Origin: an uncultured bacterium
Lineage (GTDB): Bacteria > Patescibacteriota > JABMPQ01 > CAVVCK01
Reading direction: 5' to 3'
Assembly: GCA_963746775.1 (NCBI GenBank)
Contig: CAVVCK010000001.1
Location: 483,151 to 547,150, forward strand
Length of the DNA stretch: 64,000 nucleotides
Within the stretch, counting starts at the first letter, position 1, and every line of letters starts with the position of its first letter. The translations under genes and the position numbers were made by a program. A model generated the notes under the pieces. It saw only the letters and a list, made by a program, of their open reading frames with translations, was not told the origin of the DNA and did not search any database. Below are positions 9,729 through 47,724 of this stretch, one piece after another.

Positions 9729-9768
9729 CTTCAATCCGGATATTATAAAAATCTAATTATATTCCTAA

Positions 9769-9839
9769 GCGGGCAAGCAGAATCGAACTGCCGTCTCGTC
9801 CTTGGCAAGGACGCATAATAGCCACTATACGATGCCCGC
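9769..9839 (-). tRNA. tRNA-Gly (GCC)
   Basis: Hand-folded: acceptor GCGGGCA/TGCCCGC, anticodon loop TTGCCAA, T-loop TTCGATT. Confidence 0.8.
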
Positions 9840-9931
9840 CCGGTTAGAAATTTTGGTAAATTAGAGATACTGTTAATTAATATTTTGTAATAATCAACAG
9901 TAGAAGCATTACGAACCAATACTTCTAACCG
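9840..9931. repeat. tRNA-5'-abutting hairpin element with terminal inverted repeats, copy 1
   Basis: Left end CCGGTTAGAAATTTTGG and right end CCAATACTTCTAACCG are inverted. Starts at the first base after the tRNA-Gly 5' end. Same TIR family as 11654..11758 and 30591..30690. Confidence 0.6.
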
Positions 9932-10160
9932 AGCACGCCACTTTGTAGAATATATGAAAAAGTAATAAGAAAAAATATCCTTATTACCTTAAGAGTATAA
10001 CAAAAAAAATTAAAAAGAAAAGCTTTTTAGGTGTATAAATAATTAGACCATTTTATTAAGCTTTACCCTAAAAATATAACTAATTTTACCTTTAGGGTAA
10101 AGGAAAACAAGTGAGAAATCACAAGTTTTCAGGAAGGAGCAAGAAAAGTAAAAAGTGCGC

Positions 10161-10531
10161 TTACGGACCGTTTTCTAATTCACGAAGTTTACCTTCGGCC
10201 CATTTCTTGGCCTTTTTCTCGGAAGAAAAAACTCCCAAGAAACAATCATCTCTACTTATGCTGGTATTTATTTTTACCGAACATGCCCAGCGGTTTTTAC
10301 CATCACAACACTCTACTTTTAACCCTGTTCTGGTTAGCTTGACTAAGAAAGGGGGCATATTCAAGGCTTGCCCTCGACTTATTTCTTTTCCCTCAAGTGG
10401 TCTAGTAAGATCTTTGTGTCGTATTAAGACCAAATAACAAGTAACCTTGAACAACTTTTCTACAGGCAATTGTTCGACAATACTTTGAGCCCTTTTAATC
10501 CACTCTTGAATAGTATTTATGTTTTCCATCA
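10161..10531 (-). CDS. hypothetical protein in a GC-richer segment between tRNA clusters
   Basis: ATGATG start preceded by GAGAGGAGG. No recognisable domain. Local GC is near 45%, above the window background. The antisense ORF 10111..10437 was not chosen. Confidence 0.35.
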
Positions 10532-10616
10532 TCTCCAACCTCCTCTCAATGCCTCGGCTACTGAAGCCAAAGGGCAAATCAAGTCATTATGTGGTATTAA
10601 AACAATTTTGTCAAAA

Positions 10617-10652
10617 ATAAAACCCAAGCTTTATAAGCTTGGGGTAAATTTA
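10617..10652 (-). terminator. intrinsic terminator (CCCAAGCTT-TAT-AAGCTTGGG plus T-run on minus strand)
   Basis: Hairpin followed by a U-tract in the minus-strand sense, downstream of 10852..11292. Confidence 0.5.
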
Positions 10653-10851
10653 AATACAATATATGCACCACATTTGACGTTATCAGAACTTATCTAGTCG
10701 AACACTCCACTGCAGTAGTATTACCTCCTGGCCCTTGGTTAAGCAAAACACTGGATGAAATACTAGAATCTGAATCTGAGTAAATGTCTACACAATACTC
10801 TATTTATTACTAATATATTTAAACATGTAATGCTAATTGAACTCTATTAAG

Positions 10852-11292
10852 CTACCATGCTTTTACCTTACAATATAAATTGCCAGAACAAAGATTATGA
10901 GAAAACCCAGCACAATAATCTTTACCCTCAATAATTTTCACCTCCTGAACATGAAAAATACTTATGACCACTGTAATAAGTGTAACTATAACACTGACAA
11001 TCGCTATTGTTATTGCCCATCTTGAACTCCTCCTAGCTTCCACAAGTTCTTCATATTCTATTAGTTTAAATGCACCACTAAAAGTTAAGTGAAAATTTTT
11101 TTCATTACTACTATCATCAAGCCTAAAAACCTCTTCTCCATTTCCTAATTCCATTTCACGACTAATAATATCCTTCTGTTTAGGAAATTCCTCTAATATT
11201 TCATGCTTCGTAAATTTTCCTTTTTTATTGGCCCACTTTAGTATTTCTGCATATATATTCCTACTCTTTTCAGATTCTATAGATATTTTCAT
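10852..11292 (-). CDS. hypothetical protein with C-terminal TM helix
   Basis: 146 aa. TM helix WAITIAIVSVIVTLITVVISIF near the C-terminus. Confidence 0.4.
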   Translation of the reverse strand: MKISIESEKSRNIYAEILKWANKKGKFTKHEILEEFPKQKDIISREMELGNGEEVFRLDDSSNEKNFHLTFSGAFKLIEYEELVEARRSSRWAITIAIVSVIVTLITVVISIFHVQEVKIIEGKDYCAGFSHNLCSGNLYCKVKAW

Positions 11293-11579
11293 AGAGTGTC
11301 ATTTAATTTGCATTAAACAATGTCTTATTCCTTAACCTATATTTATCCGTCGCTATCAAATAAAAAGACTTTGCAAACTTTTTATGCTCTCGCTTATTTT
11401 AAATAAATTTATACCGCCAATACATTTTCAAAAAACAAAACACAAATCATCGCTACTTAATCGAGAGATAAATTAAATTTTAAAACTATTGTAATGAACT
11501 CAACACCAAAAAAATAAAACCGCTTTCTTTAGCCAAAAAACCTTTAAAATTCATGGAAAGTTCGACCAAACTTCTCACG

Positions 11580-11654
11580 TGGTGCCGGGGGAGAGAATTG
11601 AACTCTCGACACAAGGATTTTCAGTCCTTTGCTCTACCACTGAGCTACCCCGGC
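11580..11654 (-). tRNA. tRNA-Phe (GAA), CCA encoded
   Basis: Reverse complement GCCGGGGTAGCTCAGTGGTAGAGCAAAGGACTGAAAATCCTTGTGTCGAGAGTTCAATTCTCTCCCCCGGCACCA folds canonically. Confidence 0.85.
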
Positions 11655-11758
11655 CAGTTAGAAGTTTTGGCAATTGACGTTTATACTATTGTTTCTAGTT
11701 TTACAACAATCAACGGTACAGGTTTTGATTACCAATACTTCTAACTGGCCACCGGCCC
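11654..11758. repeat. tRNA-5'-abutting hairpin element with 17-bp terminal inverted repeats, copy 2
   Basis: CCAGTTAGAAGTTTTGG ... CCAATACTTCTAACTGG is a perfect or near-perfect inversion. The left end overlaps the first base of tRNA-Phe. Confidence 0.65.
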
Positions 11759-11867: not shown

Positions 11868-12124
11868 TATGCCCCCGTAGGGGCCTTCTATTTTATGCCA
11901 TGACCTAAACAGAAAGACTAAATTTTCAGTCTTTCTAAATTCAAAATATATAGAAAAATGATAACAAAAAAGATTGGTAATTACAAGCAAAATTAATATA
12001 CCAATCTTTTTTATCATTAACAACTAAAAAGCGATAGGAGTGTCTCTGCACCATAAATGATGTGAGATCGACCACTATAGTCTATCGATAATTACAAATG
12101 TAATTACAAATAACTATTATCCTT

Positions 12125-30557: not shown

Positions 30558-30590
30558 ATGCTGGGGTTAGATTCTTAAAATATAAGCCCT

Positions 30591-30690
30591 CGGCCAGTTA
30601 GAAGTTTATGTAATAAAAGTATTTTTGCTGTTGTTTTTAAATTAAATTATAAACAACGGTATGTATTAGATTGCACATACTCCTAACTGG
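30591..30690. repeat. tRNA-5'-abutting hairpin element with terminal inverted repeats, copy 3
   Basis: CCAGTTAGAAG ... CTCCTAACTGG. Flanked by GCCCTCGG on the left and GCCCTCGT (tRNA 5' start) on the right, a TSD-like duplication. Confidence 0.55.
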
Positions 30691-30815
30691 CCCTCGTAGT
30701 TCAATGGATAAAACACCAGTCCGGTTATTCGACCAGATAAACCTTCTAAGTTGGTTATGTAGGTTCGCCAGGTCATTCGACCTGGCGCCCAGTCGGATGA
30801 CTGGGCGATTCCTGG
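30690..30815 (+). pseudogene. degenerate tRNA-Arg(TCT)-derived copy with two internal insertions, no 3' acceptor strand, ending in a terminator-like hairpin plus T6
   Basis: Colinear with the intact tRNA-Arg(TCT) at 31095 through the 5' acceptor, D-arm, anticodon loop CTTCTAA and T-stem. Interrupted by a 21-nt and a 40-nt insertion (hairpins CCAGGTCATTCGACCTGG and CGCCCAGTCGGATGACTGGGCG), then TTTTTT. Confidence 0.5.
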
Positions 30816-30831: not shown

Positions 30832-31104
30832 ATGTATTATTTATATATACTTTTGTTAAAAAATAAGCAATTATACAAGGGATCAACTAGTGATTTAAAA
30901 CGAAGATTCAATGAACACAAAAACGGCAAAGTTAAATAAACTAAATACAGAAGACCTTTAAAATTAATACATTATGAAGCATATATATTAAAAAGCGATG
31001 CCGAAAGAAGAGAAAGGTTTTTAAAAACAACAGAAGGAAGAAGATTATTAAAACAACAAATAAAAGATATTCTAAATAAACATAGTAAACATACGCCCTC
31101 GTAG
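30832..31104 (+). pseudogene. GIY-YIG nuclease-family small protein gene interrupted by an in-frame TAA
   Basis: Translation MYYLYILLLKNKQLYKGSTSDLKRRFNEHKNGKVK-stop-TKYRRPLKLIHYEAYILKSDAERRERFLKTTEGRRLLKQQIKDILNKHSKH. GIY ... YIG-family core (YxGST ... RR ... EH ... G). The TAA at 30937 sits where the family has Tyr (TAY). The ORF's 3' end overlaps the first 10 nt of tRNA-Arg. Confidence 0.55.
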
Positions 31105-31166
31105 TTCAATGGACAGAACACCAGCCTTCTAAGCTGGTTATGTAGGTTCGATTCCTGCCGAGGGCA
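31095..31166 (+). tRNA. tRNA-Arg (TCT)
   Basis: GCCCTCGTAGTTCAATGGACAGAACACCAGCCTTCTAAGCTGGTTATGTAGGTTCGATTCCTGCCGAGGGCA folds canonically. Confidence 0.8.
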
Positions 31167-31266
31167 AGTTATTATGTTCTAGTTGTTGTAAATGTCAGAA
31201 CTGTTGTAATTGAAAAAATATTTAAAACATCTATAACAATTAGAATTGTTACAACATTTTATGCAG

Positions 31267-31657: not shown

Positions 31658-32920
31658 CTAGAAAAGCTGGTCAAGGATGACTCCCAGTCGGTCGCGATTG
31701 ACCAAACCTTCCTTGACTAGGGTGTTAATGGAAGGAATTACCCTATCAGCCTTTTTTGACCGGCAGATCGGAGCGCCAGCAGTCTCCGGAAGAATAGGAA
31801 CAACTTCCATCTGTCCAAACCGCTGGTTGATCCCCTCGATATCCTCAAGCGACCAGGTGTGACTGGGCTTGCCGGTCATGGCGAACGCGTTAATAGCCCT
31901 GCAGATCATATGCATCATGCACTGTTCTGCCCAGCGTCCGTTACAACCGTCAACCCTCGAACCTGGAATGACCACTTGGCTAGTAGTGTGGCCGAAGCCA
32001 TTGAGGTTCCTCCCCTCGATTCCGAAGTTGATGATCGTCTCCAACACGTAGCTAGTGGCGAGTGGGATCCGCAGGAAGTCTTCAGCCCGGATGATCCGTT
32101 CGCCCGTGAGCATCCAGGTTAGGCGGAGCAGGCTGGGCTGGATCTGTCGAATAAAAGCGGAAACTGCTGGGTCGGGGTGAAAGGCAGCGATACTCTCCAA
32201 CCCAACTCGTGCGGCGTAGACTGCTTCGTTGCCGCGATCCACTTGACAGCCCAACACATGATTGTGCCGATGCGACGCTACCACTAGCGGGTAGGTCAAA
32301 AAACGCGCCCCATTATAGGAACGAACATCAATAAGCTCGGAGTCGTGCATCATAATGCATGCATCCTCGTAGATCGTGCCACGCTCCATCATCGCCTGAA
32401 CGATGGCCAAGCCAACCATGATGGGAATGCCCTTGCCCACAACATTTTGACGCTGAAGACTAAGAAGCTGGAAGAGTTCGGGACTGACGGATTGATCAAG
32501 AACGTGCTGTACATCGATGACCGGAACCTCCCAACGCCTGACCTCAACAACAGCTTCTTCACCAGAACGATCATTTAAAACAATAACGTTTTGGCGCGGA
32601 ATCTGGCAGTCGTTCAACAGGTAGTCCAAAACCTCCCGGGGCACGAATTCGGGCTCACCGCCCTGCTCGTGCATCGGGATCAGAACCACGATTTTGCCAC
32701 TTTGAAGTATATTGTCAACATCTTCTTTCGCCTGGTGGATTCCAACCTCACCAGGATCGTAGAGTCCCGCTTCCATTTCCCGGCAAAACTCGGAGGCAAT
32801 CTTCTCGTTGTCATTACAGAACAGCCGCAAAGCACGCTCTCTGTCCACGCCCCTCGTTCGTTCTTTAGCAGTTTCACCACCAGTCGCACTACCCAGTCCC
32901 ACAGTACCAAACCGTTCCAT
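31658..32920 (-). CDS. mannosyl-3-phosphoglycerate synthase-like (GT55-type) glycosyltransferase encoded in a high-GC island
   Basis: 420 aa. Remembered MpgS blocks: ERFG near the N-terminus; VVLIPMHEQ ... VIVLNDRSGEE (compare VVVPMKNE ... IILVSNSRRE); GKGIPIMVGLAIVQAM (compare GKAEGMVLALLLAAM); TGERIIRAED (compare TGNAGEHAMT). The canonical DAD motif is not obvious. GC is about 52% against a window average near 30%. SD AAGGAGAGG upstream. Confidence 0.5.
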   Translation of the reverse strand: MERFGTVGLGSATGGETAKERTRGVDRERALRLFCNDNEKIASEFCREMEAGLYDPGEVGIHQAKEDVDNILQSGKIVVLIPMHEQGGEPEFVPREVLDYLLNDCQIPRQNVIVLNDRSGEEAVVEVRRWEVPVIDVQHVLDQSVSPELFQLLSLQRQNVVGKGIPIMVGLAIVQAMMERGTIYEDACIMMHDSELIDVRSYNGARFLTYPLVVASHRHNHVLGCQVDRGNEAVYAARVGLESIAAFHPDPAVSAFIRQIQPSLLRLTWMLTGERIIRAEDFLRIPLATSYVLETIINFGIEGRNLNGFGHTTSQVVIPGSRVDGCNGRWAEQCMMHMICRAINAFAMTGKPSHTWSLEDIEGINQRFGQMEVVPILPETAGAPICRSKKADRVIPSINTLVKEGLVNRDRLGVILDQLF

Positions 32921-45443: not shown

Positions 45444-45573
45444 ATTTCGCCCCATAAGGGCGTATGTTGTAGTTGTTGTAATTGTTCAATCGTTCACTCC
45501 GCTTGCTTGTTCTAATTGCACATTTAAAACACTAGAACAAATAAAACATTTCGAACATTCATCATTGCCGAGG

Positions 45574-47648: not shown

Positions 47649-47724
47649 TGGGGAAAATGTTGTAATTGAGAAAATTGTTCTAAATGTTCTAATTGCACAT
47701 TTACAATAGTGATAACATCTTATT

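Follow-up and report, generated by a model that had tools for sequence, protein, structure and literature searches.

Three hairpins of about 95 bp in a 64,000-nucleotide stretch of contig CAVVCK010000001.1 (assembly GCA_963746775.1, positions 483,151 to 547,150; hereafter the window), from an uncultured bacterium of the Patescibacteriota, are very probably members of a palindromic, non-autonomous family of insertion elements that is spread across the candidate phyla radiation (CPR), resembles the miniature inverted-repeat transposable element, or MITE, and prefers the 5′ termini of genes. The hairpins have the ends CCAGTTAGAAGT...ACTTCTAACTGG and stand at the first nucleotides of two tRNA genes and of a decayed tRNA-Arg copy. 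They are insertions, since syntenic close relatives with near-identical tRNAs are empty at all three sites, and this presence/absence polymorphism already contradicts vertical inheritance at fixed positions only. Some 55 additional copies, taken from public genomes and metagenomes of CPR bacteria, show the same behavior as those of the window.

Hairpins of the window and their empty sites

The window has a GC content of 32%, carries a bacterial 16S rRNA gene and 12 intact tRNAs, and its proteins have their best homologues in metagenome-assembled genomes (MAGs) of Parcubacteria or Patescibacteria. When up to 3 mismatches are allowed, the 17-mer arm of the hairpins is counted 7 times where 0.37 are expected, a number attained by 0 of 100 shuffles, and six of the seven make up the three inverted pairs. 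All copies fold into long hairpins of -39 to -44 kcal/mol, with z-scores of -5.4 to -8.3 against shuffled controls. An earlier note on this DNA had reported the three copies and proposed the folding as a check, and both are borne out; its coordinates were exact or right to within 3–10 nt, two of them (11758 and 30591) taking in flanking repeat bases beyond the CCAG..CTGG cores. It had placed each copy at or one base from nucleotide 1 of the tRNA, which is the case: the Phe copy overlaps the tRNA by its last G, tRNA-Gly starts one base past the core and the Arg copy abuts. The repeats it described on the far flanks are also present, perfect at the Arg locus and imperfect at the Phe and Gly loci (Table 1). 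The stem of copy 1 extends 2 bp past the core (11652-11750, GGCC..GGCC). The element flanks just two of the 12 intact tRNAs, the other ten having no such leader, and it is thus not a generic leader.

Two relatives, L053 (75% identity) and L052 (86%), were reached via the SpoU methyltransferase adjoining tRNA-Cys. The gene order of L053 is that of the window (KH, TrmD, 16S, tRNA-Ile, tRNA-Phe, tRNA-Gly, tRNA-Cys, SpoU, DPBB), and the tRNAs of both relatives are near-identical to those of the window, whose tRNA-Phe matches theirs at every aligned position, L053 diverging at the 3′ acceptor strand. The Phe site is empty in both: the gap between tRNA-Ile and tRNA-Phe is 3 nt in L053, and L052 has no element upstream of tRNA-Phe. 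The Gly site is empty as well, with AT-rich spacers 5′ of tRNA-Gly. L051 carries the element at a fourth polymorphic site, tRNA-Leu(taa), which in the window and L053 is empty. The tRNA-Phe of L053 (4604-4675) is identical through position 65 and then reads AATAATAG where the 3′ acceptor strand GGCACCA is expected, which reflects either an assembly problem or a broken gene.

Five loci orthologous to the Arg locus were found via the upstream DUF3352 gene. The site is empty in three of them (L055, L059 and L060), where tRNA-Arg comes straight after the DUF3352 gene and GCCCTCG is single. It is filled in L058, which reads GCCCTCG-A-element-GCCCTCG... and keeps the tRNA intact; in L056 and in the window, a fragment or pseudo-copy of tRNA-Arg comes after the element, and beyond it lies an intact, element-free tRNA-Arg. 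Because the empty site has one GCCCTCG and the filled sites two, the Arg flank repeat is a real target-site duplication, as the earlier note had supposed. The empty sites it had suggested looking for thus exist in relatives at all three loci; these and the ten leaderless tRNAs dispose of its alternative, a conserved tRNA leader structure. In a neighbor-joining tree of the DUF3352 protein, (L055,(window,L056,(L058,(L059,L060)))), the empty L059 and L060 are nested within the filled clade, indicating one gain and one precise loss, or several gains. The decay of the element-linked tRNA-Arg beside an element-free copy in two lineages suggests that the element may carry a fitness cost at tRNAs. The pseudo-tRNA-Arg of the window, called by neither ARAGORN nor Rfam, contains three mini-hairpins, TCCGGTTATTCGACCAGA (30719-30736), CCAGGTCATTCGACCTGG (30769-30786) and CCCAGTCGGATGACTGGG (30789-30806), whose ends look like the CCAG/CTGG ends of the element and which may represent footprints or else a distinct, tiny kind of insertion. 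In L056, the 12-nt tRNA-Arg fragment is likewise followed by a GC palindrome of comparable form, TCCGCCTCTAACGGCG..CGCCGTTAGAGGCGGA.

Movement between sites is also evident. Four copies in one MAG (MAG122: L002, L005, L010 and L016) and the metagenome copy L043, from another sample, align colinearly over the whole ~97 bp (pairwise identities, among L002, L010 and L016 only, of 84.5% and 91.8%), and they occupy tRNA-Phe, tRNA-Leu(taa) and three non-tRNA sites, two of these being 5′ untranslated regions. The Phe and Gly copies of the window and the tRNA-Leu(taa) copy of L051 are homologous throughout, with a mean column identity of 78%, the Phe copy being ~80% alike to that of L051. The tRNA abuts one end of the element in the window and the opposite end in L051; therefore, both insertion orientations occur and the element has moved between tRNA genes within this lineage.

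Family anatomy, target duplications and landing sites

An exact two-arm pattern matched 30 loci in metagenomes and 18 in GTDB species-representative genomes from many CPR lineages, the hosts of the latter including Saccharibacteria, Levyibacteriota, Parcubacteria, Komeili- and Buchananbacteria, and unclassified Patescibacteria. This first set comprised in all 53 hairpins in 49 sequences, and later context fetches added L051, L056, L058, L061, L064 and L067. The pattern selects intact arms, so that arm conservation in this set is partly ascertainment; the three window copies, found without the pattern, have 0–3 mismatches per 17-nt arm. L039 and L045 were left out of the statistics. Each of these whole contigs has one flank of the element that perfectly reverse-complements the other over >20 nt, and both are probably fold-back assembly or amplification artefacts centered on the hairpin. 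No Rfam family matches the hairpin, either at the gathering threshold or at E ≤ 1, and no match to the element was found in plasmid and phage collections. One viral-contig match (L050, the same as L035) looks unrelated to tRNAs.

The element measures 72–105 bp, no open reading frame (ORF) fits inside it, and it consists of two inverted halves, each opening with a near-invariant stretch of 12 nt, CCAGTTAGAA(G/A)T. In the ~95-bp tRNA-associated subfamily, the arm runs to about 22 nt (..TTTATGNAATC) and a second block, (T/A)ACCGTTGAT, is found ~35 nt from each end. The motif CAACGGTA was dropped as an orientation marker, being present in both halves as an inverted pair, and orientation was settled by full-length homology. 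The RNAalifold consensus stem has 18 pairs, with compensatory changes at four of them, two inner and two just outside CCAG/CTGG, the outer ones being GC 12 / CG 10 / GU 1 and GC 19 / AU 4. The two positions outside CCAG/CTGG are complementary in 39/43 and 38/43 copies, with positions 3 and 4 at chance (7/43 and 9/43), and the flanks fall into the classes GG/CC (14 copies), AC/GT (12), GC/GC (6) and AT/AT (3).

When the element is counted as the CCAG..CTGG core plus one variable complementary base pair, the duplications measure 4 or 5 bp. Other boundaries, tried by hand on the flanks, fit fewer copies, and the statistics used this one. A perfect direct repeat of at least 4 nt (4–5 nt) flanks 22 of the 43 non-redundant copies; over 5000 trials with shuffled flank pairing, this number averaged 1.0 and peaked at 7. 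The end bases of the duplication are complementary, following the patterns TNNA (TTGA, TGAA, TAAA, TTTA, TTCA and TCTA), CNNG (CCGG, CCCG, CACG and CCAG, the last being CTGG on the other strand) and CNNNG (CCTCG and CGTTG).

A search of other CPR genomes for the arms and a comparison of the flanks with tRNA 5′ ends, much as the earlier note had recommended, gave more than 20 copies in immediate contact with the 5′ end of a tRNA, overlapping it by 0, 1 or 2 nt, at nine tRNA species (Phe, Gly-GCC, Arg-TCT, Leu-TAA, Leu-TAG, Leu-CAG, Ala-TGC, Met and Thr-GGT). Fourteen of them belong to the first set, with offsets of -1, 0 or +1; additional ones are the copies at the window pseudo-tRNA-Arg and at a tRNA-Thr fragment in L011, both missed by ARAGORN, and the six from later fetches. 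How the 5′ end is restored varies with the first bases of the tRNA. At tRNAs beginning GCC..., the element gives the G of CTGG and the next base, and nucleotides 3–7 are duplicated; at those beginning GGG... (Ala), it gives GGG, and nucleotides 4–7 are duplicated; at those beginning G-C-N-N-G (L005 Leu and the window Gly), it gives the extra G, and nucleotides 2–5 are duplicated. The element end and the duplication together regenerate the 5′ end of the gene.

The earlier note's proposal that the element specifically targets tRNA 5′ ends stands with the qualification that other subfamilies occupy AT-rich intergenic DNA, rRNA spacers and, to the base, start codons. Six copies, from AT-arm subfamilies, abut real N-termini, namely those of NrdR, exonuclease III, phosphoglycerate mutase, two pilin-like proteins and one other, the genes including nrdR, xthA and gpmI (Table 1). 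The final base of the element is here the A or G of ATG/GTG, the duplication is TGAA or TGCG, and the original ribosome-binding region has been pushed ~100 nt upstream. The copies of L037, L047 and L048 occupy one conserved site in 16S-tRNA spacers.

Debris is seen at several of these loci. Partial or tandem copies are stacked upstream of full ones in L012 (5800-5955), L018/L041 (~65 nt upstream), L064 (945-1150) and L002 (7700-7790), in the form of a left arm with flank repeat, or of a right half joined to the initial 18 nt of tRNA-Phe, which suggests repeated hits on one tRNA start, or unequal recombination. L011 (7419-7640) contains, in this order, an element, a 5′ fragment of tRNA-Thr whose D-loop carries a GC-rich hairpin of 52 nt, an intact tRNA-Thr and a 3′ fragment, a further instance of tRNA gene debris beside an element. 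In L046 (11675-11900), a degenerate copy abuts, in reverse, a fragment resembling a tRNA-Ser 3′ end, with an intact tRNA-Ser adjoining.

Mobilization, competing explanations and neighboring features

In the mechanism that we favor, insertion takes place at a staggered cut and leaves the 4–5-bp target duplication with complementary end bases, the tRNA-associated subfamily landing on nucleotides 1–7 of the tRNA gene. The ...CTGG end of the element and one further base yield a terminal G, GG or GC that, with the duplicated bases, re-creates the tRNA 5′ end, so that the gene stays intact and the old 5′ end remains upstream as a decaying repeat. The element would be co-transcribed as a 5′ leader hairpin, the Phe copy within a 16S / tRNA-Ile / tRNA-Phe transcript, and would be removed by RNase P, possibly after an RNase III cut in the perfect stem. 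Precise deletion between the flanking repeats, favored by the palindrome, may restore the empty site, as one clade suggests. Mobilization would occur in trans, and the best candidate enzyme, by co-location only, is a UPF0213-type GIY-YIG nuclease.

Several observations weigh against this picture. About half of the copies have no clean duplication, including the apparently young L010, L016 and L043, and in L009, L018, L034, L041, L030 and L042 the flank is an inverted, not a direct, copy of the target. Template switching that extends the palindrome might convert direct into inverted flanks, and is the sole explanation that we can offer. The base pair outside CCAG/CTGG is complementary in 39/43 copies, yet differs among closely related ones, a variability that is not predicted by a simple fixed-end transposon. 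Orthologous sites show stronger conservation in the arms than in the interior, which could reflect a function in situ. No transposase was found among 27 window ORFs compared with Pfam, and none recurs in ~390 kb of loci; there and in the window, no solo arm pairs 0.5–3 kb apart and no autonomous copy were seen, and no non-housekeeping protein recurs near the copies of the ~390 kb. Finally, the enrichment at gene 5′ ends could derive partly from sequence preference and purifying selection, and not from dedicated targeting. The reading of the hairpins as MITE-like and non-autonomous, already put forward in the earlier note, is carried by the empty sites, the duplications, the movement, the occurrence of both orientations and the lack of a transposase.

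Among the alternatives, the one that survives best, although we hold it as a tentative possibility, does without dedicated tRNA targeting. Insertion would follow a short 4–5-bp preference with complementary ends, GC-rich or (A)TGAA(T) according to the subfamily, and in gene-dense CPR genomes the survivors would be those insertions in which the element end and the duplication restore the 5′ end of the gene. The target hexamer of the T..A subfamily, ATGAAT/ATTCAT (L003, L029, L038), is indeed also a common gene start, every target of the tRNA subfamily conforms to G(C)-C-N2-3-G, and GC-rich non-tRNA targets occur (L015 CACG; L023 CCAG/CTGG). Promoter consensus scans around the copies remained at background level, and -10-like hexamers upstream of the distal repeat showed no peak at the spacing expected for transcription-start targeting, an idea that thus gained no support. 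However, the more than 20 tRNA-associated copies include none placed a few bases farther upstream, in the leader, although an insertion there ought to do no more harm, which argues for targeting, and GG/CC-class copies lie at tRNA starts in 11/14 cases against ~10% expected from GCCNNNG at viable positions (a rough estimate, not computed). Enzyme targeting and the survival of the only harmless insertions may each account for part of the tRNA-start enrichment.

A second alternative involves nuclease genes at the same junction. A GIY-YIG (UPF0213-type) pseudogene sits between the pseudo-tRNA-Arg and the intact tRNA-Arg of the window, its frame entering the tRNA and ending at T8-A9-G10. Members of this ~85-amino-acid family were found by tblastn directly 5′ of tRNAs with the element between in L005, L008, L009 and L034, and without the element in L014 (tRNA-Met) and L017 (tRNA-Asn). 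At element-interrupted loci, the ORF reads through the distal repeat and stops in the left arm. A homologue search with the L009 protein, which was not conditioned on the element, revealed C-termini consisting of translated repeat plus element arm in at least 17 of the ~34 closest homologues (for example ..PRAS and ..AEAS, each followed by a stop, GPV(K/R)T and GQLE), and the order ORF, hairpin, tRNA in all three homologue contexts fetched: L061 at Leu-TAA, with a perfect GCCGAGG repeat, and L064 and L067 at Phe. The proteins match the solved UPF0213 proteins BH0048 and EF2693, comprise the catalytic domain only and match no NCBIfam model. The co-location of nuclease gene and hairpin appears to lie far beyond chance expectation, the C-terminus survey being the better evidence; a crude Fisher test on a biased sample gave just p = 0.07 because it also counts downstream tRNAs in arrays.

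These data leave some room, though we consider it doubtful, for the hairpin being the 3′-terminal module of a composite selfish unit built around the GIY-YIG gene (ORF, hairpin, tRNA), whose nuclease would cut tRNA 5′ junctions or the hairpin/cruciform, solo hairpins being either mobilized in trans or immunity insertions that destroy the site. Apart from the shared gene order and the arm-derived C-termini, the units of L009 and L034 (ORF + GCCTCGG + element) share homology but stand at two different tRNAs, those for Phe and Leu, and the window Arg locus holds the same ORF as a pseudogene. Nevertheless, the target duplication bounds the hairpin alone, the distal repeat lying between ORF and hairpin, so that the two are not one transposing unit. 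Moreover, most copies have no GIY-YIG gene nearby, including the Phe and Gly copies of the window and every start-codon and intergenic copy, and GIY-YIG ORFs also abut element-free tRNAs (the window tRNA-Arg and those of L014 and L017). The small size of these catalytic-domain-only proteins is a further difficulty, as are the 2-nt 3′ overhangs of characterized GIY-YIG enzymes, reported for the homing enzyme SegB (PMC2330249), which would not obviously give 4–5-bp duplications.

That the ~85-amino-acid UPF0213-type nuclease mobilizes the hairpins, the two forming an unrecognized system of structure-specific nuclease and palindromic cargo, is a conjecture to which we give still less credence. 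If true, palindromic cargo would home to the first nucleotides of genes (nucleotides 1–7 of tRNAs, start codons) while regenerating the 5′ end, and the system would drive tRNA gene turnover via pseudo-copies, duplications and precise excisions. This link is the reading that could lift the element beyond a MITE-like family, and it offers a candidate function for orphan UPF0213 GIY-YIG proteins.

A host-functional RNA that has merely spread, such as a processing signal in leaders and spacers (for instance an RNase III site) or a stabilizing 5′ stem-loop, is improbable. Copies do concentrate in stable-RNA transcripts, that is, in tRNA leaders and in the 16S-tRNA spacers of L037, L047, L048 and the window, the arms and stem are kept with compensatory changes, and the arms outlast the interior at orthologous sites. 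Against this, close relatives do without the element at all three window sites, both orientations occur, Rfam has no match, and in two lineages (window and L056) the element-linked tRNA-Arg decayed and an element-free copy took over, suggesting cost rather than benefit. Least likely is a doublet of repetitive extragenic palindromes (a REPIN) mobilized through single-stranded hairpin DNA by a REP-associated tyrosine transposase (RAYT) of the HUH type, for although two inverted ~45-nt halves in a ~100-nt hairpin with symmetry kept by covariation fit in size and shape, HUH single-strand transposition is not known to make target duplications, which are clear here, neither the window ORFs tested nor any ORF recurring in the loci resembled IS200/RAYT, and the copy number per genome appears low.

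Other features of the window lie close to its hairpins and tRNAs. Between tRNA-Phe and the Gly-linked element, ~1.6 kb (9933-11579) hold two minus-strand ORFs, 10161-10577 and 10852-11292, neither with a significant Pfam match; L052 and L053 have a 100–145-nt AT-rich palindromic spacer instead of this segment, which may be an inserted island bounded by the element. The 16S-tRNA-Ile spacer contains at 11961-12017 a hairpin with a 19-bp stem, AAAAGATTGGTA..TACCAATCTTTT, conserved in L053 (4370-4415), and in the corresponding spacer of L037, L047 and L048 a copy of the element takes its place. Spacers separating tRNA genes share a conserved motif, TGTAAATGTGCAATTAGAAC, which lies on the minus strand at 45509-45528 and at 47686-47705 (0.02 matches expected, 2 observed), with looser relatives after tRNA-Arg-TCT (31180-31260) and in L056 (5630-5700); it could be a spacer processing or promoter element. 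Downstream of the Arg locus, a 420-residue ORF (31658-32920) without a Pfam match is overlapped on both strands by many spurious ORFs, as in locally GC-richer DNA, and this segment may be foreign DNA adjoining the tRNA cluster.

Table 1. Positions of the hairpin copies, their duplications and adjoining genes in the window, and of the start-codon copies at other loci
Feature	Coordinates	Strand	Remarks
tRNA-Gly(GCC)	9768..9839	-	Rfam; starts one base past element core; ARAGORN adds 1 base at each end
Element copy 2	9840..9932	.	Core; 5′ of tRNA-Gly; arms more degenerate, CCGGTTAGAAAT / TCGGTTAGAAGT
Copy 2 distal target duplication	9934..9938	-	GCGTG versus GCGGG of tRNA-Gly nt 1-5; one mismatch
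tRNA-Phe(GAA)	11580..11654	-	76 bits; nt 1 is the final G of element CTGG (11654)
Element copy 1	11654..11748	.	CCAG..CTGG core; between tRNA-Ile and tRNA-Phe, downstream of 16S rRNA gene
Copy 1 distal target duplication	11750..11756	-	GCCGGTG versus GCCGGGG of tRNA-Phe nt 1-7; one mismatch
Copy 3 distal target duplication	30586..30592	+	GCCCTCG, perfect match to nt 1-7 of tRNA-Arg sequence (30690-30696)
Element copy 3	30594..30690	.	Core; at 5′ end of decayed tRNA-Arg copy
Pseudo-tRNA-Arg(TCT)	30690..30815	+	Three GC-rich mini-hairpin insertions; 3′ acceptor strand absent
GIY-YIG (UPF0213-type) pseudogene	30832..31104	+	PF01541, E = 1.3e-14 (30832-31092); in-frame TAA at 30937
Intact tRNA-Arg(TCT)	31095..31166	+	73 bits; element-free; working copy at Arg locus
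Start-codon copy, L038	64-165		AT-arm subfamilies
Start-codon copy, L017	2093-2194		AT-arm subfamilies
Start-codon copy, L003	6930-7033		AT-arm subfamilies
Start-codon copies, L024	3618-3722 and 6196-6297		AT-arm subfamilies
Start-codon copy, L029	380-481		AT-arm subfamilies

Comparison with known systems

The element has the properties by which MITEs are recognized: it is small and non-coding, shares terminal inverted repeats, is flanked by a target duplication, shows insertion polymorphism and is multicopy, the window holding three copies, two of which are homologous along their whole length, and MAG122 four. A cognate autonomous insertion sequence (IS) was not seen in the ~390 kb of loci or in the window. 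Duplications of 4–5 bp and CC ends are reminiscent of IS1380-like elements, a parentage that we do not claim. The Correia element (NEMIS), a MITE of Neisseria, is ~100–150 bp long, has no ORF and carries terminal inverted repeats, and its transcript folds into a long hairpin; it makes a short target duplication, is present in many copies per genome, is polymorphic in presence or absence among strains and is co-transcribed with its neighbors. The likeness lies in the small, ORF-less hairpin with terminal inverted repeats, the short duplication, and the multicopy and polymorphic state. In contrast, the CPR element targets a 4–5-bp site with complementary ends and not a simple dinucleotide, is found repeatedly at the first nucleotides of tRNAs or at a start codon with its own last base or bases joining the gene, has no known parent IS, and spans many CPR lineages instead of one genus.

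REP sequences and REPINs are similar in having two inverted conserved units with a variable spacer, in being non-autonomous and in keeping their palindromic symmetry. REPINs are not known to make a target duplication, lie mostly at gene 3′ ends and reach high copy numbers, whereas the CPR element has significant duplications and lies at gene 5′ ends; with no RAYT seen, membership of the REPIN/RAYT class was rejected. Integron attC sites were also discarded, their core-site order, 5′-RYYYAAC ... GTTRRRY-3′, being reversed in the element on either strand (5′-GTTAGAA ... TTCTAAC-3′). A known structured RNA or generic tRNA leader was excluded on the Rfam search, the two flanked tRNAs in 12 and the absence from relatives. 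The literature on CPR, tRNA genes, MITEs, GIY-YIG proteins and the literal arm sequence yielded no description of the element, the arm-sequence matches being human PCR primers, and the 8 million full texts covered, like the earlier note, offered no element with such behavior.

For the adjacent ORF, the nearest counterpart is phage T4 SegB, a free-standing GIY-YIG homing endonuclease whose gene lies in a tRNA cluster (PMC2330249). The systems share a GIY-YIG gene among tRNA genes and selfish inheritance, and the window Arg locus, with a displaced partial gene copy beside a GIY-YIG ORF carrying the catalytic domain (PF01541), adds to the resemblance. The CPR ORFs differ in being ~85-amino-acid, catalytic-domain-only UPF0213 proteins with no known cleavage activity, in abutting nucleotide 1 of the tRNA and in having their stop codon inside the tRNA or the hairpin, and the hairpin has no known counterpart in the Seg systems. 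Joint movement of hairpin and ORF, which a single homing unit would entail, was rejected, the duplication flanking the hairpin alone.

The element provides a handle on the rearrangement, duplication and pseudogenization of tRNA genes in the smallest bacterial genomes and accounts for some missed or odd tRNA calls in CPR annotations. As a marker it is sharp down to the level of strains, and its ends give annotation pipelines a simple key to search with. Choice of the 5′ end of tRNA genes is a textbook trait of eukaryotic retroelements; to our knowledge, it has been described for no bacterial DNA element before the present one, with its nine tRNA species across many CPR lineages. Yeast Ty3 and Dictyostelium TRE5/TRE3 insert 5′ of tRNA genes, no more than a few nucleotides away from a defined point, and the likeness is one of targeting behavior only, the 5′ side of tRNA genes being a safe haven in a compact genome. 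Whereas Pol III transcription factors guide these retroelements, which are autonomous, the CPR element is a ~95-bp bacterial DNA hairpin that lands inside nucleotides 1–7 of the mature tRNA and regenerates them, an economical mechanism in which its own last bases and the duplication rebuild the gene.

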